64,000 nt of DNA, from contig CAWHAA010000010.1 of the NCBI GenBank assembly GCA_963827275.1, forward strand, positions 32,001 to 96,000, given 5' to 3'. Under the pieces are notes generated by a model, which was given only the letters and a program-made list of their open reading frames with translations, ran no database searches and was not told the origin of the DNA. Every line of letters starts with the position of its first letter. The stretch's first letter is position 1. Made by a program: the position numbers and the translations under genes. Shown here piece after piece: positions 15,458-33,085 of this stretch. The stretch is from an uncultured Spirochaetota bacterium. Lineage in GTDB: Bacteria; Spirochaetota; UBA4802; UBA5550.

Positions 15458-15486
15458 TGCGCCACTCCTTTCTCCGCACTCAGCCA

Positions 15487-16587: not shown

Positions 16588-16708
16588 CGCGCACTTCCGG
16601 CCGCGGGACGATACCCGCCTGTATTCAGCATAGCCATATCACCATCGAAGTATAACGCCGCGCGGGGTCAATAAATTATTCGCGCTGGCCCGATTTTTAT
16701 TGCTGCCG

Positions 16709-17860
16709 TCACATTGCCTTTTTCAGCACCGCGAGAAAGTCTTTCGCTTTCACCGGGACCATGTTGCTCCCATGGCAGGGGTCCAGTACCGCTTCACCGC
16801 TGATCCTGGCCGCATCGGAAGCGGGAATATCATATTTCGAGAGCCCGGGTTTTATCCCTACCTTCTTTACAAAAGCCCGGCAATTTTCCGAAAGACTTCC
16901 TTTATCGATGCTGCATTCGGCGAACAGTGCGTTTACTTTTTTTATCTTTGTTTTCTGCTCTTTCGTGAGCTTCGCCTTTTCAAGGAAGGCCATGGAATCA
17001 GGCAGGAGCAGCGCGTTGGCAAGCCCGTGATGCATGTGATACAGGCTCGAGAGCGGGTGCGCCATGGAGTGTACCATGCCAAGGCCTTTCTGGAACGCAA
17101 CCGCGCCCATCGATGAGGCGATCTGCATCTTTTCGCGTGCGTCCAGGTCCTTGCCGTTTTTGCACGCGGCCGGGAGCCATTTCATTACAAGCTCCATCCC
17201 CTGCAGGGCGATCCCATCGGCCATGGGGTGGAACATGCTTACGAAATACGCCTCAAGGCAATGCACGAACGCGTCCATGCCGGTGGCAGCGGTCAGGAAG
17301 GGCGGCATCCCCGCGGTGAGCTTAGGCTCAAGCACCGCGATGGCGGGAAGCAGCTCAGGATGGAAGATGATGGTCTTCCTACCGGTGTCGCGCAGGATGA
17401 TGACGCCGGAGCGCCCCACCTCGCTCCCGGTACCGGAGGTCGTGGGTATCGCATACAGGGGCGGCATCGGTCCCTTGATGTAACGGTCTCCCCCCTGGCA
17501 GTCGTCATAGCGCGCCATGGGCGGGGGGTTCGCGACCATGACCTTGATGACTTTTGCAACGTCAAGGGGACTTCCGCCGCCGAGGCCGATAATGCTGTCG
17601 CAGTTCCCGGTCCGGAAGGCGATAACCCCCTTTTCAACATCCTCCTCGACCGGGTTCGGGTGGGTATCGGAAAATATATCAAACTCGATGCCCGCGGCGG
17701 AAAGCTCGGCCGTCACCTTCTTGACGATGCCCGCCTTTTCAAGGACCGCATCGGTCACGATGAGCGCCTTCCTGTGTTTTTTTTCCTTGAGCCGCTTCGC
17801 GAATTCGGCAAGCGCCCCCTGGCCGAGCAGTATTGTTGTGGGATAGTTGTATTGTACCAT
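16709..17860 (-). CDS. Iron-containing alcohol dehydrogenase
   Basis: GGGSPLD, PTTSGTGSEVGR, DAFVHCLE, FHPMADGIAL, AFQKGLGMVHSMAH, HHG iron ligands. Confidence 0.93.
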   Translation of the reverse strand: MVQYNYPTTILLGQGALAEFAKRLKEKKHRKALIVTDAVLEKAGIVKKVTAELSAAGIEFDIFSDTHPNPVEEDVEKGVIAFRTGNCDSIIGLGGGSPLDVAKVIKVMVANPPPMARYDDCQGGDRYIKGPMPPLYAIPTTSGTGSEVGRSGVIILRDTGRKTIIFHPELLPAIAVLEPKLTAGMPPFLTAATGMDAFVHCLEAYFVSMFHPMADGIALQGMELVMKWLPAACKNGKDLDAREKMQIASSMGAVAFQKGLGMVHSMAHPLSSLYHMHHGLANALLLPDSMAFLEKAKLTKEQKTKIKKVNALFAECSIDKGSLSENCRAFVKKVGIKPGLSKYDIPASDAARISGEAVLDPCHGSNMVPVKAKDFLAVLKKAM

Positions 17861-17942
17861 TGTGGTTGCCTCGTTAAAAATCCTTTATCGCTCTATATTA
17901 TATATGGCTCAATTTATTCAACGATTTTTTATTATTGCAGGC

Positions 17943-19229
17943 CTACACATCCGACCTCCCCCTCCTCGACCGCAGCCACAATAAAAGCGTCAGCACCGCG
18001 CTCACCGAGGCAACGCACACCAGCATAAAGAGCACCGGGAAGAGGCTCCGGTCATAGCGCTGGTACATCCAGCCCACCAGCTGTTCCTGGAATATCGGCC
18101 CGATCGACCCCATGCCGTTGATGATACCCGCGGCGGCGAGCGCACCCTTCTTCGATCCGACGTCGATAGCGCCCGCGCCGGAAAGGAGCGAGTCCGGCCC
18201 GAACAGCATGAACCCGGCAAAGCCGATCGACACGGTGAACAGGACAAGACTTTTCGATCCAGAGTAATACATCATGAAAAAGGAGAGGGTCATCATGCAG
18301 ATCATGATGAATGAAAGAAACGATCTCCTGCCTTTGAATACCCGGTCGGATATGAACCCGCTCGCCATGACCCCGGCAAATCCGCATATATCAAAAACCG
18401 TTGATAGGTAGCCGGCGTTTGCCTGGGTCATGAAAAAATTCTTGTTCAGGAACCAGGGGAGCCAGCTCCAGAGAGCGTACCGGAGGAACTTTATGCAGAA
18501 GTATATAAGCCCCATGAGCGCGATGGTCGTGATGGTGTCGCGATCCCATCCCTTCGATTCTCCGTTTCCGCCCGTGTGTGCCGCCCCTTCGTCCCCGTCT
18601 TCAATCGCCGGCAGCCCGGCGTCTTCCGGCCGGTTCGGGTGGAGGAGAAGTATAAGGAACCATATGGCAAGGAGCACCACCGCGCCGCCGAAGAAGGACC
18701 ACCGCCAGCCCATCGTGCCGAGGAGGTATGACGCAAGGAGCGTCGCGGCGATCGGCCCGGCCTGGTAACAGGTGGACCAGAGGCCGAGGACGCTGCCCCG
18801 CTCCCGCCTCCTGAACCAGTGCGCCAGGCTCCCGATGCACCCGGGCCACCCGGTGCCCTGGGCCAGGCCGTTCAGCGCAATCCAGAGCATCACCGTCTGG
18901 AAGCTGTTTGCCGCGCCGAAAAGGGCTGTGCTGGCGATCGAGATTCCCGTGCCGGCGAGCAGGAGGAGCTTCGGCCCCAGCTTTTTCCCGAAATAGGCGC
19001 TGGCGAACTGGCCGACCATGTAGGCGACGAGGTACGCGGTGCCGAGATTTGCGACGTCCGTGGCCGAGAGAGTGAGCGCGTCAGCGATACCGGCCTTGGC
19101 CACGTAAAATGGCTTGCGGCAGAAATAATACCCGGCGTAGGCGAGCCAGGTGGCGGCCAGTATCCTGACCTGCCACGGGCGGTAGGGAGAGGCGCCTCCC
19201 GTTTTTGCCGGAGCGTCGGCCTGCGGCAT
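17943..19229 (-). CDS. MFS transporter, organophosphate:Pi antiporter (GlpT/UhpT-like) family
   Basis: ~12 hydrophobic segments, YYFCRKPF, QGTGWPG, WFRRRERG, GIINGMGSIG. Confidence 0.85.
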   Translation of the reverse strand: MPQADAPAKTGGASPYRPWQVRILAATWLAYAGYYFCRKPFYVAKAGIADALTLSATDVANLGTAYLVAYMVGQFASAYFGKKLGPKLLLLAGTGISIASTALFGAANSFQTVMLWIALNGLAQGTGWPGCIGSLAHWFRRRERGSVLGLWSTCYQAGPIAATLLASYLLGTMGWRWSFFGGAVVLLAIWFLILLLHPNRPEDAGLPAIEDGDEGAAHTGGNGESKGWDRDTITTIALMGLIYFCIKFLRYALWSWLPWFLNKNFFMTQANAGYLSTVFDICGFAGVMASGFISDRVFKGRRSFLSFIMICMMTLSFFMMYYSGSKSLVLFTVSIGFAGFMLFGPDSLLSGAGAIDVGSKKGALAAAGIINGMGSIGPIFQEQLVGWMYQRYDRSLFPVLFMLVCVASVSAVLTLLLWLRSRRGRSDV

Positions 19230-19235
19230 GGACGG

Positions 19236-21107
19236 TCACACCGCCCAGTCCAGCCCCAGCTCAAGCATTTTCTTTGCGGTGGGGTTCCCGGTTGTTTCGT
19301 CCCATCCCATGAAGCCGTAATACTCATCTTTCATCCTGGCGAAGTCGCCGCGGTCGACGTGGCGCCCCTTGCTGGGCCCGTCCGGGAGCGGTTCGAACAG
19401 CCGTTCCGGCAGGACGTCCTCGCGCTTTGTGAAGCCCCGGCGCGCGTTGATGTGGCGCATCATGTTGATGCGCCGCTCCCCGACCTTCATGAGCTCCCAC
19501 ATGGTCATGTGCCATCCCGCGGCATAGGTGACAAGGTCCTCCAGGTCGCGGTAGGAAAAGAGGCTGCCCGGGCCCCAGCAGAACATGCATAGGACGAGGG
19601 AATCGAGGAGGCTGTAGTATATCTGAGAGTATGCCGTCATCCGCACCTTGTTCGCGCCGGTTGAGGGCGCGTCCTCCTGGCCGAGGATCCCGAGCCCCAT
19701 GCTCGCCTCCGACTTGCTTGCCAGGAGCCAGTCATGCTCCGAGGACATGTGGTCCGGACCGATGGGGCAGACCGCGTACATGATCGCGAGGCTCGGTTTT
19801 ACCTGCGGCATGTGCACCGCCAGGCCCGCGCCCTTTATGTTGATGGCATACGGCCGGGTCTGTTCCCCGAAACGCCGTATCATCGCCTCGAAGCCGTCGG
19901 CGCAGGTATCTCCGATCCCTTCCCGCGATGCGATCGACTCTATCAGCCAGAACAAGGCCTCAGGATCGCCGAACGCGAGCTTTTTGCCGCCGGTATCAGT
20001 ATCCTTTATGAGGCCTTTTTCCATGCTCTCGAACAGGTATCCCGCCACACAGCCCATGGTGATGGTGTCGATCCCGTAATTATTGCAGAGCTCGTTCGCC
20101 TTCGCCACGGCCGCGGCATCGGTAATATCGAGGTTGGAACCGAGAAGGCCCAGTGTCTCGAATTCGGGGCCGCCGAGGGAATCAGAAAGCCGGTACGGCG
20201 CATCCGATTTCACCCGCTTCCGGCACGACACCACGCACCCGAAACAGGATGCCTGTCCCGCTCCAATCTGCGGTTCGTAGGTGGAGCCGTCAAGCTTCAT
20301 GTAGTCGGGGTGCCATCCCCGTGAGTAGTTCCGGGTCGCAAAATTGCCGCCCTCTGCCTGGAACTTCACCACGCCGGGAGTGCCGTATTTTTTTAGCGTC
20401 TCAGGGAACCCCGAGCCCGGAAGGCGGCCGGCCCCGGTTTTGGCCAGCTCCTTCATCGCTGCGGGTTCCGCGAAGGAGACCTCGCCCGTACCCTTCACCA
20501 CCACGGCCCTGAGGTTCTTGCTCCCCATGACCGCGCCGATGCCCGCCCTGCCGAAAGCGTCGTTGGCGTCCGCCATCACATTGGCGTAGCGCACAAGTTT
20601 TTCTCCGGCCGGGCCGCACTGCATGACGCTCAGGCTCTTATCACCGTGCTTCTTCATCAGCAGGGCGCGCACCTCTGATACAGGACGCCCCCGGAGCTCC
20701 GCGGCGTCCTGGATGGAGACCGCCCCGTTTTCGACCAGGAGGTACGACAGCGACGGCGCCCGCCCCTCGATGACAATGGCGTCATACCCCGCCCGCTTGA
20801 TCATGGGGCCGATGCTCCCGCCGGCCTGGCTGTCAGCCGCCATGCCGGTGAGCGGCGAAAGCGCCGTGACACAGCAGCGGCTCACCCCCGACACCGCGGC
20901 CCCGGTGGCGATCCCCGGGGCTATGGTCATTATGTTTTCCGGCGACAGCGGGTCCGTCTTCGCGCCGGTATTTTTTAGAAGGAAGTATGATCCGATTGCG
21001 CTCCCGCCGAGGAACATGCGGTAAAAATCCCCTCCGGGGTGCAGCACCTCGGTCTTTCCCGTGGTCAGGTCTATCCGGAGTATGGCGTCATTGAATCCGT
21101 GGTTCAT
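19236..21107 (-). CDS. Tungsten-containing aldehyde:ferredoxin oxidoreductase family protein
   Basis: SPLTG, GYDAIVIEG, GRAGIGAVMGSKNL, CFGCVVSC plus CMFC Fe-S ligands, GPEFET, GIDTIT, LPERL. Confidence 0.93.
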   Translation of the reverse strand: MNHGFNDAILRIDLTTGKTEVLHPGGDFYRMFLGGSAIGSYFLLKNTGAKTDPLSPENIMTIAPGIATGAAVSGVSRCCVTALSPLTGMAADSQAGGSIGPMIKRAGYDAIVIEGRAPSLSYLLVENGAVSIQDAAELRGRPVSEVRALLMKKHGDKSLSVMQCGPAGEKLVRYANVMADANDAFGRAGIGAVMGSKNLRAVVVKGTGEVSFAEPAAMKELAKTGAGRLPGSGFPETLKKYGTPGVVKFQAEGGNFATRNYSRGWHPDYMKLDGSTYEPQIGAGQASCFGCVVSCRKRVKSDAPYRLSDSLGGPEFETLGLLGSNLDITDAAAVAKANELCNNYGIDTITMGCVAGYLFESMEKGLIKDTDTGGKKLAFGDPEALFWLIESIASREGIGDTCADGFEAMIRRFGEQTRPYAINIKGAGLAVHMPQVKPSLAIMYAVCPIGPDHMSSEHDWLLASKSEASMGLGILGQEDAPSTGANKVRMTAYSQIYYSLLDSLVLCMFCWGPGSLFSYRDLEDLVTYAAGWHMTMWELMKVGERRINMMRHINARRGFTKREDVLPERLFEPLPDGPSKGRHVDRGDFARMKDEYYGFMGWDETTGNPTAKKMLELGLDWAV

Positions 21108-21155
21108 ATCGGTCCTCGCTGGAAATAAATGTTGTGCGGCACGCGATCATTATTT

Positions 21156-22781
21156 TTAAAATATAAAATCCGTCGACAGGAAATTCGACTTCTTCTCCCG
21201 TAAAATCTCGGTGATGATCTTCTTGTTCTGGTCGGTCTCCTTGATCGCCACAAGGGTGCGTATGGTGAACACCCTGAGCGCGTCGGTGACAGAGAGCGTC
21301 CCTTCCGCGCTGTCTTTCCGTCCCGTGAAGGGAAAGGTGTCAGGACCGCGCTGGCACTGGGCGTTGATATTCACGCGGCAGACCTGGTTCACCAGGGTGT
21401 CGATCAGCCTGGCGATGGCGCCCGGGTCGTTGCCGAATACCGCCACCTGCTGGCCGTAATTTGAGTTGACCACGTATTCCAGCGGCTCTTCGACCGATTC
21501 ATACGGGACGACCGGTATCACCGGCCCGAACTGTTCCTCGTGGTATATCTTCATCCGGGCGTTCACCGGGTAGAGTACGGCGGGGAACATGAAGGTCTGG
21601 TTCACGAGGCCGCCCGTTTCGTTCACGACCAGCGCGCCGTGCTCCTTCGCGTCCTCGATGTAGCCCTTCATGTGCAGGATCTTGTCCGGTTCCGGGAGCG
21701 GCGTCAGGGCGACCCCCTTGTCCCAGGGCATGCCGGGAACGAGGGACACGATCTGATGGTTCAGCTTCTTCAGGAATTCCACCACGATGTCTTTATGGAC
21801 GAATATTATTTTTATGGCGGTGCAGCGCTGGCCGTTGAACGACAGCGCGCCGGTGACGCATTCCTTTACCGCGAGGTCGAGGTCCGCGTCCTTCAGGACG
21901 ATCCCCGCGTTCTTCGCGTCGAGCCCCAGCACGGAGCGAAGACGGTGCGGCTTGGGGTGCTGCTTCTTTATGATGTCCGCCACCCTGCTCGACCCGATGA
22001 AGGCGAGCACGTCCACCTTCCCCGATTCCATGAGCGGGCCCACCACCATGGCGCCGTCGCCGTAAATGGTATTGACCACGCCCTTCGGGAACGCCTCTCT
22101 GAACGCCCGCAGCAGCGGGCGGTGCAGCAGGACGCCGATCTTCGGCGGCTTGAAGAGTATCGTGTTTCCCATGAGGAGCGCCGGGATCAGGGTGGTGAAG
22201 GTCTCGTTGAGGGGATAATTGAACGGCCCCATGCACAGGACAACGCCGAGCGGGGCGCGCCGCACCTGGCCGATAATGCCTTCTTTAATTTCGAAGCGCG
22301 ACCCGGCGCGGTCAAGCTCCTTGAGCGCATCGATAGTAAACGATATATACTCGACCGTGCGGTCGAATTCCTTCGCGCTGTCTGCATACGATTTCCCTAT
22401 CTCCCACATCAGCAGGTTCACTATCGCCGCGCGCTCTTCCTTCATCATGAAGGTGAATTTTTCGAGGCAGGCGATCCGCCCGCTCACCGTAAGGGCCGGC
22501 CACGGCCCCCTGCCGCTGTCATAGGCGGCGACCGCCGCGTCAAGGGCCTCCAGTGATTCCTTCGCGGTGAAGAGCGGGTAGCTGCCGATCGTCTGGCGCT
22601 CAACGCCCTTATCGGTTTTCAGGCATATCGGGGAAACGACGTCCTGCATCGGGCCGTTCCAGACGCGGATCTCCCCGTTCACGAGATACTCTTTCTGCAC
22701 GATGGGAAACGCGGGCAGGAATTCCGCCGGGACCCCTTTTCTTTCCGGGAATATCGATCCGATGTTTTCCCTGGTGGCCAT
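21156..22781 (-). CDS. gapN: Non-phosphorylating NADP-dependent glyceraldehyde-3-phosphate dehydrogenase (ALDH family)
   Basis: GPFNYPLNE, FIGSS, LGLDAKN, NGQRCTA, EEQFGP, QRGPDTFPFTGRKDS. Confidence 0.87.
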   Translation of the reverse strand: MATRENIGSIFPERKGVPAEFLPAFPIVQKEYLVNGEIRVWNGPMQDVVSPICLKTDKGVERQTIGSYPLFTAKESLEALDAAVAAYDSGRGPWPALTVSGRIACLEKFTFMMKEERAAIVNLLMWEIGKSYADSAKEFDRTVEYISFTIDALKELDRAGSRFEIKEGIIGQVRRAPLGVVLCMGPFNYPLNETFTTLIPALLMGNTILFKPPKIGVLLHRPLLRAFREAFPKGVVNTIYGDGAMVVGPLMESGKVDVLAFIGSSRVADIIKKQHPKPHRLRSVLGLDAKNAGIVLKDADLDLAVKECVTGALSFNGQRCTAIKIIFVHKDIVVEFLKKLNHQIVSLVPGMPWDKGVALTPLPEPDKILHMKGYIEDAKEHGALVVNETGGLVNQTFMFPAVLYPVNARMKIYHEEQFGPVIPVVPYESVEEPLEYVVNSNYGQQVAVFGNDPGAIARLIDTLVNQVCRVNINAQCQRGPDTFPFTGRKDSAEGTLSVTDALRVFTIRTLVAIKETDQNKKIITEILREKKSNFLSTDFIF

Positions 22782-22815
22782 GTCATCACCTCGCTGCAGG
22801 TTGAATAATGAGCGC

Positions 22816-24111
22816 TTACTGCTTCCCGTACCGGACCGCTTCCAGTATGATCTCGGAGTAGGAGGGGTGCACGAACATGCACTCCTCTATCTCATCGGTC
22901 CGTATGCCGCGCGCCACGATCAGGGCAAGCTGGTTCATGATTTCGGCGATATCCTCCCCGACCGCGGACGCGCCGATCACCCTGCCCGTTGAAGATTCCG
23001 CGACCAGCTTGACAAAGCCAGTGTCCTTCCCCTCCATGACCGCCTTGCCCAGGGCCTTGAAGAAATACCGGTACACGCGGCAATCGATATTCTTCCCGTC
23101 CGCCTCTTTTTTCCCCATGCCCGCGCTCCCCACCTGCGGGCTGGAGAAGACAAGGCGCGGCATCGCGGCATAATCGATGTGCGGCGCCTTCCCGGTCGCG
23201 AGGTGCCGCACCGCCGCCTCGGCCTCGCGCGCCGCGGTATAGGCAAGCATCGGGGTGTCGATGCAGTCGCCGGCCGCGTAGATGTTCGCCGCCGTTGTGC
23301 GCAGGGCCCGGTCAACGGTGATGAACCCCTTATCGTCGACGGCGATCCCCGCCGCGCCGCAGGAGAGCGACGCCGTGTTCGGCCTGCGGCCCGTTGTTTC
23401 GAAGATGACATCGTACTTCTTCGTCATCGGGGCATCCGCCTGGATCGTCGCCTCCCCGTCGGGGGATATAACCGATATCCCGCTCTTCGCGTACACGTTG
23501 ATCTTCCTTTTTTTGAACTCGCGTAGCATGACCCGGACCGCCTCCTCGTCCTCGCCGAGAAGGGGCGAATCAAGCATTTCCACCAGATCGACCTGCGAGC
23601 CGACGGATGCAAGGAACGACGCGTACTCGCACCCCACGACGCCCCCGCCAATGATCAGCGCGCTTCCCGGCGCCTTTTCAAGATTGAATATCCGGTCTGA
23701 TGGATACACGTTGGGAAGATCGAAGATCCTTTTCGGGGTTGATCCGGTTGCGATGATGAAGTGTTGTGCGGAGACGGCCTCGCCGCCGGCAATGATTTCG
23801 GTGTTTGACCGGAACGATGCGTCCCCCCTGATGGTCTCTATGCCGAGCGATTGTATCCGCGCGCGCAGGCCCGTGCGTATCTGCGCCACGCGCGTCATCA
23901 CGAGTTCCCGCAGGGCTTGGTACGCCATTCCCGCATGGGCATGGTAGATCAGGCCCTTCAGCGGGATGCATCCTTCGTTCAGGCACACACCGCCGAGCCG
24001 CTCCGGGTCCCGCTCCACGATCGCGGTTTTTAAATTAAATTTCCTCGCTTCGAAGGCCGCCGTGTACCCCGCCGGCCCCGAGCCTATGATGACCAGATCA
24101 TATTTGTTCAC
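22816..24111 (-). CDS. lpdA: Dihydrolipoamide dehydrogenase (GCS L-protein)
   Basis: GSGPAG, GGVCLNEGCIP redox disulfide, GGGVVGCE, HPSYSE; GTG start at 24111 overlaps the lipA stop. Confidence 0.92.
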   Translation of the reverse strand: MNKYDLVIIGSGPAGYTAAFEARKFNLKTAIVERDPERLGGVCLNEGCIPLKGLIYHAHAGMAYQALRELVMTRVAQIRTGLRARIQSLGIETIRGDASFRSNTEIIAGGEAVSAQHFIIATGSTPKRIFDLPNVYPSDRIFNLEKAPGSALIIGGGVVGCEYASFLASVGSQVDLVEMLDSPLLGEDEEAVRVMLREFKKRKINVYAKSGISVISPDGEATIQADAPMTKKYDVIFETTGRRPNTASLSCGAAGIAVDDKGFITVDRALRTTAANIYAAGDCIDTPMLAYTAAREAEAAVRHLATGKAPHIDYAAMPRLVFSSPQVGSAGMGKKEADGKNIDCRVYRYFFKALGKAVMEGKDTGFVKLVAESSTGRVIGASAVGEDIAEIMNQLALIVARGIRTDEIEECMFVHPSYSEIILEAVRYGKQ

Positions 24112-24959
24112 CTGTCGCTCCTGTATGTGTCCGCCATGTATGAGCTCCGCACATAGGGGCCGCTCTCCACGTGGGAAAAGCCGAGCGCGAGCGCCTCCTC
24201 CCGGTACGCGTCGAACATGGCCGGCTCGATATACTCGCGCACCGGCGCGCACCCGCCGCCGGGGCGCAGATACTGCCCGAGGCTCAGGTAATCGCACCCG
24301 GCGCGCCTGAGGTCGCGCATCACCGCGGACACCTCTTCGCGGGCCTCCCCCAGCCCGAGCATCATGCCGGACTTGGTCCGCAGTGCGGGAGAGAATGCTC
24401 TGGCGGTTTCGAGCACCTTCAGGCTCCGTTTATAGTCGCATCCTTTCCGCACGGCATAGAGCGAGGGCACTGTTTCAATGTTGTGGCCGAAGATATCCGG
24501 CCCCGCGCCGGCGACAATACCGATAGCGTCCGCATCTCCCCTGAAGTCCGGCACCAGCACCTCCACGGTGACCGCCGCGTCATGTGCGCGCAGCCCGCGT
24601 ATGACGCCCGCGAAGAGCGAGGCGCCGCCGTCCGGGAGGTCGTCCCTGGTAACGGAGGTTATGACCGCGTGCCTGATTCCCATCCTCCGCACCGCTTCGG
24701 CCACGCGCCCGGGCTCAGCTGCATCGGGCAGCCCCGGTGCGCCGTGTTTCACAGCGCAGAAGGAACACCCCCTGGTGCAGACGTCGCCCATGATAAGGAA
24801 CGTCGCCGTGCCCCGTGAAAAGCACTCGGCGATGTTCGGACAGCGCGCTTGATGGCACACCGTGTGCAGTCCGAGCCCCCGCAGCATCCCCTCGGTCCCG
24901 TGCATGGCGCGGAAATCGATTTTCTTATTAAGCCATTGCGGCCGTGTCTGCCTCATCAT
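24108..24959 (-). CDS. lipA: Lipoyl synthase
   Basis: CHQARCPNIAEC auxiliary cluster, CTRGCSFC, SVTRDDL, RSSY. Confidence 0.96.
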   Translation of the reverse strand: MMRQTRPQWLNKKIDFRAMHGTEGMLRGLGLHTVCHQARCPNIAECFSRGTATFLIMGDVCTRGCSFCAVKHGAPGLPDAAEPGRVAEAVRRMGIRHAVITSVTRDDLPDGGASLFAGVIRGLRAHDAAVTVEVLVPDFRGDADAIGIVAGAGPDIFGHNIETVPSLYAVRKGCDYKRSLKVLETARAFSPALRTKSGMMLGLGEAREEVSAVMRDLRRAGCDYLSLGQYLRPGGGCAPVREYIEPAMFDAYREEALALGFSHVESGPYVRSSYMADTYRSDR

Positions 24960-25761
24960 CCTCCGCCCTGCCCTCCATGTTCCAGCGGTCGCTCAGGTAC
25001 CTTTTTTCCATGATCGTGCGCACCTCCTTCATCTCGTCCCCGTCGAGGTCAGCAGGATCGAGCTCCCAGCCAGTCGAGAGGACAAACGCGTCCTTGAGAC
25101 GCGCGATGACCCGGTCCTCGTTATTCGTATGGCCGGTGGCCCTGTCGAGAGAGGTGAAATTGCCGAAATCGACCGGTGCGGAAAAGCAGGAGCGTATCGT
25201 TTTCTCGTCGATGTCGAGGGGAATGGAGCCGTGCTGGAAAATACTCCCCCCCGACCTGCGCTGCGCGTTGCCGCCGATCTTTCTTCCATCGATAATAATG
25301 TCATAGTTTTCGTTTGCTGAAAAGCAGAAGTCCGCGCGGCGCCCGGCGGCGCGGCGGACACTCGATTCCATGGCAAACTGGGCCGGCAGGCCCATCATGC
25401 GGTACAGCCTGATGATGATTTTATTCATCGTCTCGAACGATTCGCTCACCGAGAGCGGCCTTCCGTCGATGTCCCTCTCGCCGCAGGCGAAGGAATAGGT
25501 CACCTCACGGTCATGGAATATCGCGCCCCCGCCGGTGATGCGGCGCACGACCGCGACACCGTTTTCCCGGCACGCGCCGATGTCAAGGCAGGATGACGGC
25601 TGGTACCTTCCCAGGGTGATCGACGGCGGGGACCAGCCGTAAATCCTGAGGAACGGCCGGCGGCAGCGCACGTGCCACGCGTACAGGAATTCATCGATCG
25701 CCATGTTCTCATGGCCGCTCCGGGGCGCGCAGGAAACGAGCCGGGCCTTCAGCGGTTGCAT
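24928..25761 (-). CDS. lipM: Lipoate-protein ligase/octanoyltransferase (LipM-like)
   Basis: NMAIDE, RIYGW, RRITGGGAIFHD, CF, RKIGGNAQ, QHGSI; no C-terminal LplA domain. Confidence 0.8.
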   Translation of the reverse strand: MQPLKARLVSCAPRSGHENMAIDEFLYAWHVRCRRPFLRIYGWSPPSITLGRYQPSSCLDIGACRENGVAVVRRITGGGAIFHDREVTYSFACGERDIDGRPLSVSESFETMNKIIIRLYRMMGLPAQFAMESSVRRAAGRRADFCFSANENYDIIIDGRKIGGNAQRRSGGSIFQHGSIPLDIDEKTIRSCFSAPVDFGNFTSLDRATGHTNNEDRVIARLKDAFVLSTGWELDPADLDGDEMKEVRTIMEKRYLSDRWNMEGRAEDDEADTAAMA

Positions 25762-27194
25762 GTCAATTTCAGTTCCCGTGCCGCCCTGGTCTCGTCCGGC
25801 CGGGAGACGGGCGTATTGTTCGGGGCGTTCTTGAGACGTCCGGGATCGGTCTCGGCCAGGCCTGCTATCTCGATCATGGCGTCAATGAATTCGTCGATCG
25901 TCTGCTTCGACTCTGTCTCGGTCGGCTCGATCATCAGCGCTTCGTCGACGACGAGCGGAAAATATATCGTGGGCGGGTGGAACCCCCGCTCGATCAGCGC
26001 CTTGGCGATATCGATGGCGTGCACGCCGTTTTTCTGCACCTGCCGCTTCGCGGAGAAGACGCATTCATGCATGCAGACCCGGTCATAGGGCAGGTCGTAA
26101 TACGGCTTGAGCTTCGCCCGGATGTAGTTGGCGTTCAGCACCGCCTTCTCTGAAACATCGATAAGCCCTTCTTTTCCCAGCATCATGATATAGACGCAGG
26201 CGCGCACCAGCACGGCAAAATTACCGAAAAACGACGCCAGTGCGCCGATGCTCCGGTCCATGCCGGAGTCGAGGTAATACCTGCCTTCCTTCGTGCGGCC
26301 GACTACCGGCGTCGGCAGGAATTCCGCGAGCCTGCCGGACACCGCGACGACACCGGCCCCGGGGCCGCCGCCGCCGTGCGGCGTGGAAAAAGTCTTGTGT
26401 AAATTCATGTGCACGATGTCAAAGCCGATATCGCCGGGCCGCGCCTTCCCCAGGATCGCGTTCAGGTTTGCGCCGTCGTTGTAGAGGATCGCGTCGTATT
26501 TGCGCGCAATCTCGACGATCTCGCGTATCTGCGGGTGGAACAGGCCCAGGGTGTTGGGAAGGGTCAGCATGACGCCCGCCACCCGGTCATTCATGGCGTC
26601 CCTGAATTTTTCCAGGTCCATGCCGCCCTCCCGGCTGACCGGTATCGAAATGACCTCGTAGCCCCCCATTGCCGCGCTGGCGGGGTTGGTGCCGTGCGCC
26701 TCGTCGGGGACGATGACGTACTGCTTCTTGTTCCCCTTGCTCCGGTGATAGGCCGCCATGAGGAGGATGCCGGCAAGCTCGCCGTGCGCCCCCGCGTAGG
26801 GCTGGGTCGTCACGGCCTTCATGCCGGTGATCTCTGCGAGAAAGACTGAGAGGGTGTGGATGAGCTCGAGCGACCCCTGGACCGAACCCTCGTCAATGTA
26901 CGCCATAAGCGGGTGCACCGATGCGAACCCGGGGAGCGCGGCCATCGCTTCGTTCACTTTCGGATTGTACTTCATGGTGCAGGAGCCGAGCGGATAGAAA
27001 TGGGTGTCCACCGAAAAATTGAGCTGGGACAACCGCACGTAATGCCTGACCACGTCGAGCTCCGACACCTCGGGGAGGCCGGTATCGGTTTTTCTCAGGT
27101 ACCGGTCGCCGATCTTCCTGGCTGCCGCCTCGTCCGCCGCGCCCATGTCGACACCGGTCCTGCCCGGCACGCTCTTTTCAAATATCAGTTTCAT
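25749..27194 (-). CDS. gcvPB: Glycine dehydrogenase (decarboxylating) subunit 2
   Basis: MKLIFEKS start, YPLGSCTMKYNP, AHGTNPAS, NLHKTFSTPHGGGGPG (PLP Lys), MIEPTETE. Confidence 0.95.
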   Translation of the reverse strand: MKLIFEKSVPGRTGVDMGAADEAAARKIGDRYLRKTDTGLPEVSELDVVRHYVRLSQLNFSVDTHFYPLGSCTMKYNPKVNEAMAALPGFASVHPLMAYIDEGSVQGSLELIHTLSVFLAEITGMKAVTTQPYAGAHGELAGILLMAAYHRSKGNKKQYVIVPDEAHGTNPASAAMGGYEVISIPVSREGGMDLEKFRDAMNDRVAGVMLTLPNTLGLFHPQIREIVEIARKYDAILYNDGANLNAILGKARPGDIGFDIVHMNLHKTFSTPHGGGGPGAGVVAVSGRLAEFLPTPVVGRTKEGRYYLDSGMDRSIGALASFFGNFAVLVRACVYIMMLGKEGLIDVSEKAVLNANYIRAKLKPYYDLPYDRVCMHECVFSAKRQVQKNGVHAIDIAKALIERGFHPPTIYFPLVVDEALMIEPTETESKQTIDEFIDAMIEIAGLAETDPGRLKNAPNNTPVSRPDETRAARELKLTCNR

Positions 27195-28526
27195 GACAGC
27201 ACCTTCCGTGCGGCGGACACGAACCGGTCGATATCGCCGGCCGATCTTTTTTCCGTTGCCGAGACGATTAGCTGGTCCGGCCTGTCTCCGTAGAAGAGCG
27301 ACGCGGGGACGCCCGGCGGCAACGCCTTCGGCGAGCATCTTCTTGGCGAATTCGCGTGCCGGTCCGGGAAGGACGACCGTGAATTCATTGAAGGTCCTCG
27401 CCTTGATAACGTCGATCCCGCGCACCTTCCGCAGCGCCTGCCTGAGATCTTCGGCGCGCTCCATGTTCATGATTGCAGCCGTCCTGAAGCCTTTCCTGCC
27501 AAGGAGCGACAGGTATACCACCGCCCTGAGCGCGCAGAGGGCCTGGTTGGAGCATATATTAGAGGAGGCCTTTTCCCTGCGTATGTGCTGCTCGCGGGCC
27601 TGCAGCGTGAGAACGTACGACTTTGTGCCGTTGCGGTCGGACGTCTCGCCGACGATCCTGCCCGGCATCTTGCGCACGTACCTCCTGTCAACCGCCATGA
27701 GCCCGAGGTAGGGGCCGCCGAACGACAGCGGCATCCCCAATGACTGTCCCTCGCCCACGGCGATATCGGCCTTCATCTCGCCCGGGCTTTTTAAAACGCC
27801 GAGCGACAGCGGGTAGAACGAGAGGATGCTCACGATGTCCTTCTCACGCGCCTGCGAGAAGAGGTCCTCGTAATCGTCAACGGTCCCGAAAAAATTGGGG
27901 TTCTGCACCACCAGCGCCGCGACGGTATCGTCCAGCATGGATTGCAGCCGCTCCCTGTCGGACGACACTTCCTTGCAATCGATCTCGATTATTTCAATGT
28001 CAATGTTTATCGCGTAGGTCTTCACGATCCGCCTGAAGAGGGGATTGACGCCGCCGTCGATGACGACCCTCCTCCTGCCGTTCGCCCGCACCGCCATCGC
28101 GATGGCCTCGTAGAGCGCCGTGCCGCCGTCGTAGAGGGAGGCGTTCGCGTAATCAAGCCCGGTGATGCCTGAAATCATCGACTGATATTCGAATATGGAG
28201 CGGAGCGTGCCCTGGGACGCCTCGGGCTGGTAGGGGGTATAGGCGGTGACGAATTCCGAGCGCGAGGTGATAGCGTCCACCGCCGCGGGGATGAAATGGT
28301 CGTAATAACCGCCCCCGACGAATGATACGCAATCGGTCCTGTTGCGGCCGGCCAGCCCGGTGAAATAGGCGGTGGCCTCGTTCTCGGTCATGCCGGCCGG
28401 GAGTTCGAACGACTTCGGTGCCAGCGCGGAGGGAATATCGGCGAACAGCTCGTCAACCGAGGCGACGCCGATCTCGCCGAGCATCTGCCGTGTTTCGTCT
28501 CCGGTGTGCGGTGTAAAGATCGCCAT
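27191..28526 (-). CDS. gcvPA: Glycine dehydrogenase subunit 1, with one +1 indel at 27312-27314 (probable sequencing error)
   Basis: TAYTPYQPEASQG, NASLYDG, FGGPYLG, REQHIRREKASSNICSNQ; the true C-terminus (GVPASLFY...LIVSATEKRS...KVLS*) lies in the adjacent frame and ends at 27191. Confidence 0.92.
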
Positions 28527-28528
28527 GG

Positions 28529-28921
28529 CTACTCCAGGCCGCCCGCGTATTCCCTGTACTGCGCCGCGGTCATGAGGTTTTTTGTCTCCGCGGGATCGGC
28601 AAGCTCGATCTCCGCGATCCATCCGTCGCCGTAGCAGGACTGGTTGATCAGCTCGGGCGCGTCATCGAGCGCATTGTTGAAGGCCCTGATCGTGCCGGAA
28701 AGCGGCGCGTATATGTCGCTGGCCGCCTTGACCGATTCTATCCCGGTCAGGAAATCAAACTGCTTCACCGCCTTGCCGGCCGGGGTCGGATCGACATAGG
28801 TGATGTCGCCCAGCTTCTGCTGCGCGTAATCGCTGATACCCACCCTGGCGCGGTTCCCTTCGACTTTCGCCCATTCATGTTCCTTCGTATAAAAATACCC
28901 ATCCAGCACGGTGATCTTCAT
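28529..28921 (-). CDS. gcvH: Glycine cleavage system H protein
   Basis: YTKEHEW, GISDYAQQKLGDI, lipoyl motif IESVKAASD, PELIN, GDGWI. Confidence 0.97.
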   Translation of the reverse strand: MKITVLDGYFYTKEHEWAKVEGNRARVGISDYAQQKLGDITYVDPTPAGKAVKQFDFLTGIESVKAASDIYAPLSGTIRAFNNALDDAPELINQSCYGDGWIAEIELADPAETKNLMTAAQYREYAGGLE

Positions 28922-28927
28922 CTCCCT

Positions 28928-30025
28928 TTATACCTCCGAATATTTGATTGATGTCTGTTTTATAAAGGGCACCGGCTCGATCTTCGCCCTGATGACGCCC
29001 TTTCCCGTATCGATATCGATGTCTCCGCCCGCGGCGGCCACCGCCGCGTCAACGTAGCCCATGCCGATCCCCCTGTTCAGGTGCGGCGAAAAGACCCCGC
29101 TGGTCACGAAGCCGGCATCCGCGCCGCCGGCCAGGATCCTGTTTTCATGGCGGGGCGTCCTCCTGCCGTCCACGGTAAATCCGATCATGCTGCGGCGCAC
29201 GCCCCGCTTCCGCTGTTCGATGAGCGCCGCCTTCCCGAAAAAATCCTTCTCCATGTCGAGGAAGCGGTCCATACCCGCGTCAAACGGCGTTGTTGTTTCG
29301 CTCAACTCGCTTCCATATAATGGGAGCCCCATCTCCAGCCTCAGGATGTCCCGCGCGCCGAGCCCCGCCGGTTTCACCGCAGGGTGCTTGAGCAATAGCT
29401 TCCAGAGGTCAACGCCCCTGTCCCGGTCGATATACACCTCGAAGCCAAGCTCGCCGGTGTAACCGGTCCTGCTGACGATGTACGAGCCGCCGAGAAAATT
29501 GAACCGGTCGAAGCCGTAATACGCGAGCTTTTTCACGCCGTCGCCCGCGATTGATTTCATGACATCGAGGGATTTCGGCCCCTGCACGTCGATCTTCACC
29601 GTCCGCGAGGATATATTTTCAATTGATGCGCCGGGCGAGAGCCGCGACGAGATAATGCGGTAATCGCGCTCTTCGCCCGCGGCGTTGACCACCAGCATCC
29701 ATTCGCCGTCAGCGATACGGTACGCGATGAGGTCATCGAGCACCATCCCCGCGTCATCGAGCAGGAACCCGTACTTGCACCGCCCTGTCTTTATTTTGAG
29801 CATGGGGATGGTGACCGCCCGGTCGATCGACGCCTGCCCCGGCGCCTCTTTCACCACGAACTCTCCCATGTGGGAGATATCGAAGATGGAGACGGCGGAG
29901 CGTGTGTGTTTCGCCTCTTCGAGGATGCTGCCGTAATGTATGGGCATGTTCCAGCCCGCGAACGGCGCCATGAGCGCGTTGAGGGCGGCATGTTCTTCGG
30001 CTATCGGGGTATTTCTAATTTCCAT
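28928..30025 (-). CDS. gcvT: Aminomethyltransferase (GCS T-protein)
   Basis: FAGWNMP, FDISHMGE, SRTGYTGELGFE, GLGARDILRLEMG; start MEIRNTP at 30025. Confidence 0.96.
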   Translation of the reverse strand: MEIRNTPIAEEHAALNALMAPFAGWNMPIHYGSILEEAKHTRSAVSIFDISHMGEFVVKEAPGQASIDRAVTIPMLKIKTGRCKYGFLLDDAGMVLDDLIAYRIADGEWMLVVNAAGEERDYRIISSRLSPGASIENISSRTVKIDVQGPKSLDVMKSIAGDGVKKLAYYGFDRFNFLGGSYIVSRTGYTGELGFEVYIDRDRGVDLWKLLLKHPAVKPAGLGARDILRLEMGLPLYGSELSETTTPFDAGMDRFLDMEKDFFGKAALIEQRKRGVRRSMIGFTVDGRRTPRHENRILAGGADAGFVTSGVFSPHLNRGIGMGYVDAAVAAAGGDIDIDTGKGVIRAKIEPVPFIKQTSIKYSEV

Positions 30026-30057
30026 TCCACGGGTCCCGTCTTTTCTTGCGGCGAAGG

Positions 30058-30600
30058 CTACTGGTACGTCTCGGCCGCGTCGATTTCGATATCTATGTCC
30101 ATCCGGTCGGCCAGCTTCTCCAGCTCCTTTCGCAGGGAGGAGAGCTTTTCGCCGACCGGCACGTTGATGATGCACTTCATCCTGAATATCGGCGCGCCGC
30201 TCAGCGGCGCGTTGGTGACGCGCGTCTCCATCGATTCGATGTTGATGTTCCGCTTGTGCAATATCCGCGTGATTTCATGCACGATGCCCGGATGGTCCAT
30301 GCTGGTCGCGGAGAGGCGGTGCGGCATCGAAGGCACCACCATCCTTTCCCGCGGCGCGAGGGTTGGCTTGACCTGTATTGAAAGGCCGGTGCTCTTTTCC
30401 AGGGCCGGCAGGTCGCCCCGTATCCGCTCCGCCACGTCGGCATCGCCGGAGGCGAGCAGGATCACGGCGAACTCTCCCCCGAGGACCGCCATGCGGCTGT
30501 CTTCAATGTTTATCTTCGCCGCAGTCAGGAACGCGCTGATTTCATCGACCAGACCCGGTCGGTCATGGCCGATTGCGGTGAGGACTATATATGTGCTCAT
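30058..30600 (-). CDS. gcvR: Tandem ACT-domain protein, GcvR-like
   Basis: Two ACT repeats: GHDRPGLV...NIEDSRMAVLGGEF and SMDHPGIV...NIESM. Confidence 0.8.
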   Translation of the reverse strand: MSTYIVLTAIGHDRPGLVDEISAFLTAAKINIEDSRMAVLGGEFAVILLASGDADVAERIRGDLPALEKSTGLSIQVKPTLAPRERMVVPSMPHRLSATSMDHPGIVHEITRILHKRNINIESMETRVTNAPLSGAPIFRMKCIINVPVGEKLSSLRKELEKLADRMDIDIEIDAAETYQ

Positions 30601-30842
30601 TGTGCCGCCTTATATACAAATGCCGGATTTTCATCGGAAAAATCGATGCATCACACAATTAACGCTATAAATTACTTTTAAAAAAAACAAGTTAAAATTC
30701 TTATGTCGTATGATTTTTTTAAAAAACGCCCCCCGGACATCATCTCCCGACAAATTACTTTACAAATTTGATGCAACGGGTAGCATCTATCGGGATGAAC
30801 AACCGCACGTCCCGGGCATATTGATTGCGCGAGGTAATGATC

Positions 30843-32234
30843 ATGATTAACACTCCCCCAAAAGGGATGCTCACCCTTTCTCAGCTCAAGGAAAAAGCTG
30901 CGGCCGGAGAGATCGAAACCGTCATCGCCGCGTTCCCGGACCTGTATGGCCGCCTTTTCGGGAAAAGGATCGCCGTGGATTTTTTCCTGGACCAGGTGGC
31001 AGGCTCCGGGATGCACGCCTGCAATTACCTCTTCACCACCGACATGTCGATGGACCCTGTCCCCGGCTACCGGTACGCGAACTGGGACTCCGGGTACGGC
31101 GATTTTCACTGCGTGCCGGACATGCCGACCCTCAGGCATGCCTCCTGGCTCGACAGGACCGCCCTGGTCCTCTGCGACGCGCATGAAGAGCACTCCGGAT
31201 CGCCCACGCCGGTGGCGCCGCGTACGCTTCTAAAAAAACAGCTCGCGTCCGCTGCGGAAGCGGGGTTCCTTCCCGTCGGCGCGTCCGAGCTCGAGTACTA
31301 CATATTCAACGAAACCTACGAAAGCGCCCGCGCAAAGCAGTACCAGGGCCTCAAACACTTCGGGGCATACATAGAGGACTATCACATACTGCAGGGCACC
31401 CGCGAGGAGCCGCTCAACGCCGCGGTGAGAAAGCATCTCGCGGAGAGCGGTATCCCGGTCGAATTCAGCAAGGGGGAATGGGGGCCGGGCCAGCACGAGC
31501 TGAACATCCGCTATGCGGATGTGCTCTCCATGGCGGACAGCACCTGCCTGTACAAGCAGTGCTTCAAGGACATCGCGGGGAGCATGGGGCTTGCCGTCAC
31601 CTTCATGGCGAAATTCGACGAACGGCTCGCCGGATCAAGCTGCCACATGCACCTGAGCCTGTGGGACCCGGCAGGAAAGAAGAACCTTTTTTCCGGCAAC
31701 GAAAAGACCGGGCCGGTGATGGGATCCATGCAGTTCCGCTGGTTCCTGGGCGGATGGATCAGGCACGCGCCGGAGCTGATGCCGTTTTACGCCCCGACGG
31801 TCAACTCGTACAAGCGCTACCAGTCCGGGTCATGGGCGCCGACCGCGCTCGCGTGGAGCTACGACAACAGGACCGCGGGCTTCAGGATCGTCGGAACGGG
31901 AGAATCGCTCCGCATAGAGACGCGCATACCCGGCGCGGACATCAACCCCTACCTCGCCTATGCGGCGGCGATCGCCTCCGGCCTCGACGGCATCCGCAAA
32001 AGGATCGACCCGCCTGACGTTTTTGAAGGCGACATGTACTCCGCGAAAACGCTGCCGCGCGTACCCGCAACGCTGCGCGACGCGGTTGACGCCCTGGAGC
32101 AGAGCGCCTTCGCGCGAGACGCCTTCGGCGCCGACGTGATCGGGCATTATTGCCATTTTTTCAGGACCGAGCAGCGGGGGTATGACCGTGCGGTCACGGA
32201 CTGGGAGCGGGCGCGTTATTTCGAGCAGATCTGA
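30843..32234 (+). CDS. glnA4: Glutamine synthetase-like gamma-glutamyl-amine ligase (GlnA4 type)
   Basis: GRLFGKR, DPVPGYRYANWDSGYGD, SELEY, SKGEWGPGQHE, GSSCHMHLS, NSYKRY, DNRT, IETRIPGADINPY; resembles recalled actinobacterial GlnA4 rather than GSI. Confidence 0.82.
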   Translation: MINTPPKGMLTLSQLKEKAAAGEIETVIAAFPDLYGRLFGKRIAVDFFLDQVAGSGMHACNYLFTTDMSMDPVPGYRYANWDSGYGDFHCVPDMPTLRHASWLDRTALVLCDAHEEHSGSPTPVAPRTLLKKQLASAAEAGFLPVGASELEYYIFNETYESARAKQYQGLKHFGAYIEDYHILQGTREEPLNAAVRKHLAESGIPVEFSKGEWGPGQHELNIRYADVLSMADSTCLYKQCFKDIAGSMGLAVTFMAKFDERLAGSSCHMHLSLWDPAGKKNLFSGNEKTGPVMGSMQFRWFLGGWIRHAPELMPFYAPTVNSYKRYQSGSWAPTALAWSYDNRTAGFRIVGTGESLRIETRIPGADINPYLAYAAAIASGLDGIRKRIDPPDVFEGDMYSAKTLPRVPATLRDAVDALEQSAFARDAFGADVIGHYCHFFRTEQRGYDRAVTDWERARYFEQI

Positions 32235-32258
32235 GCCCGCCAGCCGGGCCGGCGGGCT
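32234..32258. terminator. Hairpin between convergent glnA4-like and PilZ genes
   Basis: AGCCCGCC-N9-GGCGGGCT. Confidence 0.4.
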
Positions 32259-32613
32259 ACTGTCTGGCGAGGGTGATATAGTAATTCAGCGCGTTCCTGT
32301 CATCCGGGGAGAGTTCCATGAAATTTATCGCGACCCGGTACGACCGGTCGCCCTCATCTTCGACGCGGACGACCCTGCCCGCTCCCCTGAAAAAATCAAA
32401 GGTGTTCGGCTTCATGAAGGTGACGCTGACTGTTTCGCCCGCGTCGAGCTTCCTCCCGGTGCTGACCAGCAGGCCGCTCCCGCTGACATTGACCGCCTTC
32501 GATGTGCCGAGCTCGATAACTTCCCCGCCCGACGCACCGCCTTCCCTGACCAGCCTGACGTTGAACTCATCATTGACCCTGACATAGTCCCTCTTGCCAT
32601 CGCCGTCAGTCAT
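32257..32613 (-). CDS. Single-domain PilZ protein (c-di-GMP receptor)
   Basis: RDYVR (RxxxR) and NVSGSG (D/NxSxxG) motifs intact. Confidence 0.88.
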   Translation of the reverse strand: MTDGDGKRDYVRVNDEFNVRLVREGGASGGEVIELGTSKAVNVSGSGLLVSTGRKLDAGETVSVTFMKPNTFDFFRGAGRVVRVEDEGDRSYRVAINFMELSPDDRNALNYYITLARQ

Positions 32614-33085
32614 TGCGGACCTCCTGCTGGTTTCTGTAAACGGTAACCGGGAACCGCATCTCGCCCGCCTGCGTCTTCATGAATAACGTCCCCGCAAGCC
32701 GGTAGCGAATGACGCCCGTATCCTTCATCGCGCCGGGGAGCGACATGCCGAGGGTAGCATAGGGCATTGAAACCGACGCGTCAACAGTTTTCAAGCCGGC
32801 CGGCGGTATTTTTACTTCGTTGATGCGGACATTGATGGTCTTCCTGTCTTCTATATAAAAATAAAGGTCCATCCTGTCAATTATGACCTCTTTAGGATTG
32901 GGATTTGATATGGCGATGGTCAGCCCGATCGTCATATCGGAAAGCGACAGGTCACGGATCTCCACCTTCTCAAGCGAGAACACGCATCGCTTCGCCAGCT
33001 TCCTCTGCTCAATAGCGTCGCAGCCGGCGACGCATGCAGCCATCAGCATGACTGCAAGCAGGCCTCCTGATGAAATTTTTTTCAT
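32606..33085 (-). CDS. LEA type 2/WHy domain lipoprotein
   Basis: Lipobox-like VAGC after a hydrophobic stretch; ISNPNP motif; start MKKIS at 33085. Confidence 0.8.
   Translation of the reverse strand: MKKISSGGLLAVMLMAACVAGCDAIEQRKLAKRCVFSLEKVEIRDLSLSDMTIGLTIAISNPNPKEVIIDRMDLYFYIEDRKTINVRINEVKIPPAGLKTVDASVSMPYATLGMSLPGAMKDTGVIRYRLAGTLFMKTQAGEMRFPVTVYRNQQEVRND

Follow-up and report, generated by a model that had tools for sequence, protein, structure and literature searches.

Organization of the locus

The window, that is, the whole 64,000-nucleotide stretch of contig CAWHAA010000010.1 analysed here (uncultured Spirochaetota bacterium, assembly GCA_963827275.1), contains a packed minus-strand run of twelve genes, namely gcvR-like, gcvT, gcvH, gcvPA, gcvPB, lipM-like, lipA, lpd, gapN-like, an aldehyde ferredoxin oxidoreductase (AOR), a major facilitator superfamily (MFS) permease and an iron-containing alcohol dehydrogenase (Fe-ADH), and a glutamine synthetase (GS)-like ligase divergent from this run (Table 1). 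An earlier reading of the sequence alone (the original prediction) had interpreted these genes as an anaerobic gamma-glutamylation pathway from ethanolamine or another amine to glycine, with AOR at the aldehyde step and the glycine feeding the adjacent glycine cleavage system (GCS). All genes lie where it had placed them, and the spacing it described as overlaps or gaps of up to 82 bp measures -32 to +82 bp. Such spacing suggests co-transcription of the minus-strand run; a promoter scan returned eight matches against 6.6 expected, thus no signal above chance, including the weak promoter-like match at 30759-30786 between the gcvR-like gene and the ligase.

The genome of the window (G000, 92% complete) was analysed together with a comparison set of 61 genomes. 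A single contig of an independent sequencing run covers positions 16500-33000 in one piece with identical gene order, and the matching independent runs stem from samples of bioreactors, manure, sediment and freshwater. An extra base at 27315 of the assembly joins gcvPA and gcvPB into one open reading frame (ORF) of 957 aa in the window; this base is absent from three of four independent runs, the fourth having no cover there. Relatives carry separate genes of 444 and 481 aa, and a gcvPA-gcvPB fusion was ruled out as a real feature.

Table 1 Features of the ligase-gcv-AOR locus (window positions).
Feature	Position	Strand	Evidence
GS-like gamma-glutamyl-amine ligase, GlnA4/ethanolamine-glutamylase clade	30825..32234	+	Pfam Gln-synt_C, PDB matches, tree, residues
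A+T-rich divergent intergenic region, gcvR-like gene/ligase	30601..30824		sequence
GcvR-like double-ACT protein	30058..30600	-	PRK11589 75.5 bits, below cut-off 267; ACT_6
gcvT aminomethyltransferase	28928..30025	-	above NCBIfam cut-off
gcvH	28529..28921	-	above NCBIfam cut-off
gcvPA, end shifted by extra base at 27315	27191..28526	-	above NCBIfam cut-off
gcvPB	25749..27194	-	above NCBIfam cut-off
Lipoate-protein ligase/LipM-like	24928..25761	-	Pfam LplA-B_cat
lipA lipoyl synthase	24108..24959	-	above NCBIfam cut-off
lpd dihydrolipoyl dehydrogenase (L protein)	22816..24111	-	best TIGR01350, 345.7 bits, below cut-off 408.8
GapN-like non-phosphorylating aldehyde dehydrogenase	21156..22781	-	PDB matches
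Single-subunit AOR/WOR-family oxidoreductase, uncharacterised subfamily	19236..21107	-	AFOR_N + AFOR_C domains, structure model
OPA-family MFS permease (PgtP/UhpC/GlpT-like)	17943..19229	-	best TIGR00881 184.9 bits, below cut-off 407.75
Iron-containing alcohol dehydrogenase (Fe-ADH)	16709..17860	-	NCBIfam profile, Pfam, tree, motifs

Placement of the ligase

The ligase scores under every GS family cut-off, and its best PDB matches, 11ZS (E 1e-143) and 5DM3 (E 1e-113; which we take to be the Chromohalobacter salexigens enzyme), are far ahead of other entries. Its closest relatives, 74-82% identical, occur in Spirochaetota records. Translation likely begins at the ATG at 30843, which a GAGGT site precedes. 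In a quick tree built from 57 GS-like proteins, GlnA3 not among them, the ligase falls inside a 42-row clade (SH-aLRT 100) and outside PuuA and IpuC, in agreement with the GlnA4-type ligase originally predicted. The clade also holds the operon ligases of Ruegeria, Paracoccus and Rhizobium, a Streptomyces GlnA4-type gene and a Thermomicrobium ligase gene beside an 'eat' permease. Identity of the ligase is 41-46% to the operon stand-ins, 26% to PuuA and 37% to IpuC. In Ruegeria and Paracoccus the operon order is RpiR, amidohydrolase, TRAP transporter, ligase, aldehyde dehydrogenase (ALDH), Fe-ADH, as given for the Phaeobacter sp. MED193 ethanolamine operon in the accessible text of PMC10132767.

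Compared with the catalytic residues listed in the accessible part of the GlnA4 paper (PMC6529630), the ligase keeps those for metal, ATP and glutamate, E155, E157, E218, E225, H274, E365, G270, H276, R331, R354 and R367 (numbered from position 30825). The ammonium-specific residues of GS are lost, with W337 in place of flap E327 and no Asp in the D50 column, which lies in a poorly aligned region, and an EDYH loop is common to the ligase and the ethanolamine-operon ligases. Tree and residues support membership of the ethanolamine-ligase clade, and the enzyme is predicted to glutamylate ethanolamine with ATP. The only other type I GS-like gene of G000 (C5:90361; L066:8149-9402) has Gln at the conserved R359 column and may be atypical.

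The ligase is present in 14 of the 61 genomes. Among ligase-bearing genomes of other phyla, one of five had an AOR match, just 37% identical; AOR and gcv genes were found in none of the fetched flanks of 16 non-spirochaete ligase loci, 12 of which hold an ordinary ALDH.

Exchange of AOR and aldehyde dehydrogenase

Across the comparison set, 14 of 18 AOR matches are orthologues (at least 64% identity), Fe-ADH occurs in 18 genomes and gcvT in 42. Fifteen Fe-ADH-bearing genomes belong to the genus of the window; ten carry AOR only, three ALDH only, two both and none neither, counts that constitute a pattern and not a statistic because the genomes are kin. The three without AOR (G004, G010 and G012) have a 462-aa ALDH directly before the MFS and Fe-ADH genes. 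This slot ALDH is found in five of the 61 genomes, the other two being G002 and G013, which carry AOR and hold the ALDH in a cassette elsewhere. G005 and G006 are without Fe-ADH, AOR, ALDH, MFS, amidotransferase and ligase.

The slot ALDH matches 38 plasmid records at 50-64% and stands one or two genes after a GS-like ligase in six of the six annotated or mapped regions opened that hold it. The ALDH tree unites it with the operon ALDHs in a group of 19 rows (support 99), apart from PuuC and the Streptomyces-type ALDH. These observations support the interchangeability of AOR with the pathway's NAD-dependent ALDH, and uphold the assignment of AOR to the aldehyde step. A canonical ALDH elsewhere in the genome had been named beforehand as counter-evidence; no orthologue of the pathway NAD-ALDH was found in G000 (best match 32%), and it is present in five of 16 genus relatives. 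In the genus tree, G012 stands beside the AOR-bearing G015, and G004 and G010 lie among other AOR-bearing genomes. The trees agree better with an ancestor that possessed both enzymes, AOR being lost on at least two separate occasions, than with a one-way event in which AOR replaced ALDH, which was rejected.

The gapN-like gene was considered as the pathway aldehyde dehydrogenase and dismissed: all 11 of its PDB matches at E<=1e-50 are GapN, it falls outside the pathway ALDH clade, and it is missing from the cluster in G002, G003, G008, G013 and G014. The ALDH cassette of G002, G013, G010, G012 and G004 also includes gapN, so the window gene is likely a remnant of that cassette and a passenger. 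A GntR-linked cassette with four unrelated aldehyde dehydrogenases, GapN among them, moves as a block in the genus (L190:5397-12657, L191:3592-10770, L044:289-8130).

Properties of the AOR

The structure model of the AOR (pLDDT 91.6) superposes on 1AOR with a TM score of 0.91 at 32% identity. The four Fe-S cysteines, C288, C291, C295 and C507, are invariant in 39 of 39 rows, as are the Glu and His aligned to the Pyrococcus furiosus active site. No small-subunit gene lies beside it, its neighbours being the gapN-like and MFS genes, a Class I trait. G000 also contains MoeA and a TupA-like gene (244 bits, below the cut-off of 400), and a tungsten cofactor and ferredoxin as acceptor are predicted. 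The AOR would be a gamma-glutamyl-aminoacetaldehyde:ferredoxin oxidoreductase. Its subfamily comprises 444 proteins at E<=1e-150 among 7,998 scored.

The anaerobic character of the pathway is a prediction, and G000 also has a heme-copper-oxidase-family gene. This gene, located elsewhere in the genome (C6:74385-76004), is divergent, reaching just 101 bits to TIGR02891, and has a 182-aa partner; three relatives carry the same pair as an insertion that separates ligase from gcvR (L005:7119-9334).

Fe-ADH, permease and candidate hydrolase

The four Fe-ADH motifs cited originally as marks of a subtype, GTGSEVGR, IIFHP, FHPMADGIAL and AFQKGLG, are all present, and three of the four are exact or near in a 4-hydroxybutyrate dehydrogenase (Gbd); IIFHP and the HPM part alone separate the operon enzymes from the latter. 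Fe-ADH has these two features, the NCBIfam profile of the operon enzymes and a place in one 49-row clade with them (support 99), but is just as close to a Gbd; it is a predicted gamma-glutamyl-ethanolamide dehydrogenase. The MFS permease falls below all curated GlpT/UhpT/PgtP-type cut-offs, is OPA-like at family level, and is the predicted importer of a phosphorylated head group. In G031 (L193:2482-7676), homologues of the MFS (45%) and of a HAD phosphatase face betA and betB, which suggests phosphocholine uptake by this MFS family.

As stated originally, the gamma-glutamyl hydrolase lies outside the window: the missing enzyme is likely a class I amidotransferase encoded elsewhere in G000, paired with a HAD phosphatase gene (the two genes at C5:663171-664784) and orthologous, as is the HAD (61% and 65% for HAD and amidotransferase), to a pair in G045. 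The amidotransferase occurs in 17 of the 61 genomes, all among the 18 bearing Fe-ADH; G023, the one Fe-ADH genome without it, encodes a different amidotransferase within its operon. The two genes stay together at each of 11 further loci of this kind, and none of 15 amidotransferases has lost the Cys or His-Pro-Glu motif. In operons of Burkholderia and Paracoccus versutus, homologues come after the ligase and ALDH genes. Of the amidohydrolase or PuuD-like genes to be looked for as hydrolase, peptidase-C26/PuuD-type hydrolases gave weak, partial matches at most in G000 and were set aside. The one N-formylglutamate amidohydrolase (FGase)-like gene was also discarded, since 59 of 61 genomes have it whether or not they carry the module, which makes it housekeeping by distribution. 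A protein of about 135 aa without a Pfam match follows the HAD-amidotransferase pair in nine of 12 loci (C5:664792-665200 in G000; L064:8778-9200). A search for eutBC, also proposed at the outset, found no EutB in the 92% complete G000, and no TRAP transporter EtoX was present among the cluster genes, to which that search was confined.

Linkage to glycine cleavage

The GCS is complete, as predicted, with T, H, PA, PB and lipA above cut-off and L as best family match under its cut-off. Apart from G000, 13 of 15 gcvT-bearing genomes of the genus have the AOR or ALDH block immediately after the gcv genes; in G004 the gcv genes end at a contig edge and in G006 gcv stands alone. In ten of 11 other genomes, ligase and gcv are divergently oriented on one contig; in G011 a contig break intervenes. 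Since it concerns one genus and one inherited arrangement, the linkage counts as one event. Functional coupling of the pathway to the GCS is plausible, glycine being the predicted product, and we favour it by a modest measure; the AOR/Fe-ADH/ligase module itself does not depend on the GCS.

Distribution beyond the genus

In G023, from another genus, AOR, Fe-ADH, ligase and amidotransferase form one run, and in G045, from another family, the run reads AOR, HAD, amidotransferase, Fe-ADH, ligase, amidotransferase. Metagenomic loci were scanned with an AOR profile, and the best 80 of at least 363 were kept and collapsed to 67 non-redundant groups. Within 6 kb of AOR, these groups hold Fe-ADH in 29 cases, amidotransferase in 15 and a GS-like ligase in 13; locus L083 has all six partners in a row. 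The module-linked AORs occupy early branches of a 63-row clade in the AOR tree. In a survey of the phylum, 14 of 401 genomes had a match to the AOR profile at E<=1e-200. Twelve belong to the family of the window; of the other two, one yielded a fragment of 1.5 kb and one a 41% homologue whose neighbours are unrelated.

Neighbours of AOR loci include GDPD in six loci and PotD-like binding proteins in seven, and the aminoethylphosphonate enzymes PhnW and PbfA lie beside other AOR loci. The GDPDs of G000 resemble the AOR-linked GDPD only distantly (26% along the full length). The GDPD, PhnW/PbfA and betA/betB neighbours hint at head-group substrates, phosphorylated ones in the case of betA/betB. 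At L079, L089, L090 and L126, subfamily AORs lie among PhnW, PbfA, an acylating ALDH and tandem MtmB-family genes, and AOR among 2-aminoethylphosphonate genes possibly marks an anaerobic phosphonate route.

A predicted pathway and its alternatives

Gene content, gene order, family membership, the exchange of AOR and ALDH and the co-occurrence of the genes are direct observations, and the module is real and conserved. In the pathway that we propose, the OPA-type MFS would import a phosphorylated head group, probably phosphoethanolamine, from which the HAD phosphatase (C5:663171) would release ethanolamine, two steps that we put forward tentatively, at a little under even chances. The ligase would then form gamma-glutamyl-ethanolamide at the expense of ATP, Fe-ADH would oxidise it to the aldehyde with formation of NADH, AOR would convert the aldehyde to gamma-glutamylglycine and reduced ferredoxin, and the class I amidotransferase (C5:663951) would free glycine and recycle glutamate. 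In this genus, the adjacent GCS would turn the glycine into CO2, NH3, methylene-tetrahydrofolate and NADH. That AOR performs the aldehyde step of a gamma-glutamyl-amine route appears probable and, given this, ethanolamine is with good confidence the substrate. The whole reading, in which ligase, Fe-ADH, AOR and the distant amidotransferase constitute ethanolamine gamma-glutamylation with a tungsten-type, ferredoxin-linked AOR replacing the NAD-ALDH, is one that we hold to be somewhat better than even.

Several observations weigh against this reading. The assayed ligases SCO1613 and those of C. salexigens and MED193 lie outside the tree, represented by stand-ins picked by gene order, and the flap residue of the ligase is Trp and not the Phe of GlnA4 (F331) and of the Streptomyces and proteobacterial stand-ins. 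Fe-ADH shares 38-41% identity with the operon enzymes, against 38% with a Gbd; it falls in the same broad clade as the former, yet is not sister to them. The MFS was not found in the module-bearing G003, G014, G023 and G045. The gcv linkage, predicted to be conserved, is so within one genus only: no gcvP or gcvT was found in the module-bearing G023 (98% complete), gcv is on another contig in G045, and G006 has gcv without the module. No ligase, amidotransferase or Fe-ADH lies near AOR in 33 of the 67 metagenomic groups, some contigs being short, and a 14-row AOR subclade has no module gene nearby. Finally, the combination of ligase, gcv, AOR and Fe-ADH to be surveyed in related genomes was found in the genus, but G002, G008 and G013 keep AOR-MFS-Fe-ADH without the ligase, without gcvR and without another ligase of the clade, their AOR, MFS, Fe-ADH, amidotransferase and HAD genes showing dN/dS of 0.06-0.15, similar to that of their gcv genes. 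The loci of this ligase-less clade are L028-L033, L164 and L165.

The strongest alternative retains the same chemistry, with AOR at the aldehyde step, for another amino alcohol or amine (aminopropanol, serinol, alaninol or a polyamine fragment), gcv being a mere neighbour and the product not necessarily glycine. The flap Trp, which G023, G045 and T. roseum share, is also that of IpuC; ligases of a second clade are accompanied by the same ALDH and amidotransferase subfamilies, in one case with a gene of the acetyl-amine deacetylase family nearby; the PotD-like proteins beside seven AOR loci are ABC binding proteins; and GlnA-like ligases are promiscuous according to the accessible part of PMC13740247. 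We nonetheless regard another amine as unlikely, since the ligase groups with the ethanolamine-operon ligases and the gene next to the 'eat' permease and has the EDYH loop, GDPD, HAD and aminoethylphosphonate genes are neighbours, and the module is joined to the gcv operon in the genus.

A second alternative makes the ligase optional, the module acting on an imported glutamylated compound or the amidotransferase moving the glutamyl group from glutamine to ethanolamine. It draws on the purifying selection seen in the ligase-less G002, G008 and G013 (88-96% complete), on an amidotransferase that tracks Fe-ADH better than the ligase does (17 against 14 of 18) and stands beside metagenomic AORs as often as the ligase (15 vs 13 of 67), and on the two different amidotransferases of G045. 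The three ligase-less genomes are one clade, and thus one loss; their GSI-alpha-like protein might stand in, ligases may lie elsewhere in the metagenomic genomes, and several separate branches have ligase, AOR and Fe-ADH side by side, which together make this alternative distinctly unlikely. A bolder extension, to which we give a marginally lower and likewise small chance, is a tungsten-containing oxidoreductase (WOR) subfamily dedicated to gamma-glutamyl amino-aldehydes, by which anaerobes would oxidise lipid head groups completely to CO2, NH3 and C1 units with formation of reduced ferredoxin; in lineages lacking the ligase, the class I amidotransferase would move glutamyl from glutamine to the amine, so that gamma-glutamylation would need no ATP-dependent ligase.

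AOR and Fe-ADH could also be a generic redox or detoxification pair for alcohols and aldehydes, placed near gcv and the ligase by lineage accident, as most Class I WORs that have been characterised detoxify a broad range of aldehydes according to the accessible text of PMC13328260. The 14-row subclade, the retention of AOR and Fe-ADH in ligase-less genomes and the arrival of the slot ALDH inside a cassette of several ALDHs agree with such a pair. It is rendered improbable by the exchange of AOR with a specific ligase-linked ALDH subfamily and by AOR-ligase adjacency in 13 of 67 groups against about 1% expected (an estimate from two GS-like genes per 4 Mb); two further AOR-family loci of G000 have no ligase nearby. 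A reverse pathway, in which a reversible AOR reduces gamma-glutamylglycine with low-potential ferredoxin to provide ethanolamine for membranes and the GCS supplies glycine, would accord with the junction to gcv and with the ability of AORs to reduce acids, but is very improbable given that AOR is exchangeable in three relatives with NAD-ALDH, whose step is practically irreversible, and that an importer and phosphodiesterases are neighbours.

Comparison with known systems

Ethanolamine gamma-glutamylation operons of Chromohalobacter salexigens, Agrobacterium tumefaciens C58 and Phaeobacter sp. MED193, with the parts ETAGA, GETADH, GAADDH, GGAH and the TRAP transporter EtoVWX, are described in the accessible text of PMC10132767. 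The locus resembles these operons in its ligase clade, the broad Fe-ADH clade and the ALDH subfamily found in the AOR slot of three relatives. It differs in having AOR for NAD-ALDH, a class I amidotransferase for formylglutamate amidohydrolase, OPA-MFS plus HAD for TRAP and GcvR-like for RpiR, and in genes that are spread over two loci and joined to gcv. The Chromohalobacter/Phaeobacter operon, with its Fe-ADH, is a better model than the Streptomyces route first chosen. The Streptomyces coelicolor GlnA4 pathway, SCO1611-SCO1615 in the accessible part of PMC6529630, shares with the locus the ligase clade, the catalytic residues, glycine and glutamate as predicted products and the lack of eut genes found; unlike the locus, the Streptomyces-type cluster examined encodes an SDR, a hydrolase of the peptidase-C26 type and an ALDH from a different clade, GlnA4 has a flap Phe, not Trp, and the pathway is aerobic.

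As in the Escherichia coli Puu and Ipu pathways, the amine would be shielded by glutamate, oxidised and hydrolysed; unlike there, the ligase is outside the PuuA/IpuC position, and PuuC is in another ALDH clade. With Class I WORs such as P. furiosus AOR (1AOR), the window AOR has in common the fold, the single large subunit, the four Fe-S cysteines and the aligned Glu and His, and differs by its 32% identity and its separate subfamily tied to amine-catabolism genes. The GCS is ordinary except for its position directly upstream of the AOR-MFS-Fe-ADH genes in the genus. In the literature searched, mostly outside subscription papers, we found no account of gamma-glutamylation that involves an AOR, in line with the original statement that no such anaerobic variant was known to be described. 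No characterised WOR has an amine-catabolism role in the accessible text of PMC13328260, whose main text is without 'glutam', 'ethanolamine' and 'amine' and three supplements of which are without 'glutam' and 'ethanolamine', Table_1 being outside that search.

Neighbouring genes in the window

Beginning 121 bp after Fe-ADH, a minus-strand block (12007-16587) comprises an FrhB-like Fe-S protein, indolepyruvate oxidoreductase alpha and beta and a radical SAM gene; it is probably a separate unit, as other genes intervene after Fe-ADH in most relatives. Further on, an ORF at 11320-11874 (+) resembles an IS200/REP-associated tyrosine transposase. The mutS gene (36037-38621) is broken into three ORFs by extra bases near 37646 and 37988 that are missing in other runs, and the assembly therefore has single-base insertion errors.

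Implications

A defined physiological role is reported for just five of 92 WOR clades in the accessible text of PMC13328260, and a widespread, uncharacterised WOR subfamily would gain a specific substrate, backed by a natural exchange with ALDH. The surprise is limited, because the pathway chemistry itself is known. The amidotransferase subfamily gains a candidate role as gamma-glutamylglycine hydrolase. If the proposed pathway is true, its aldehyde step would yield reduced ferredoxin and not NADH, and bacteria of bioreactors and sediments would have a B12-free route for ethanolamine from the phospholipids of dead biomass.

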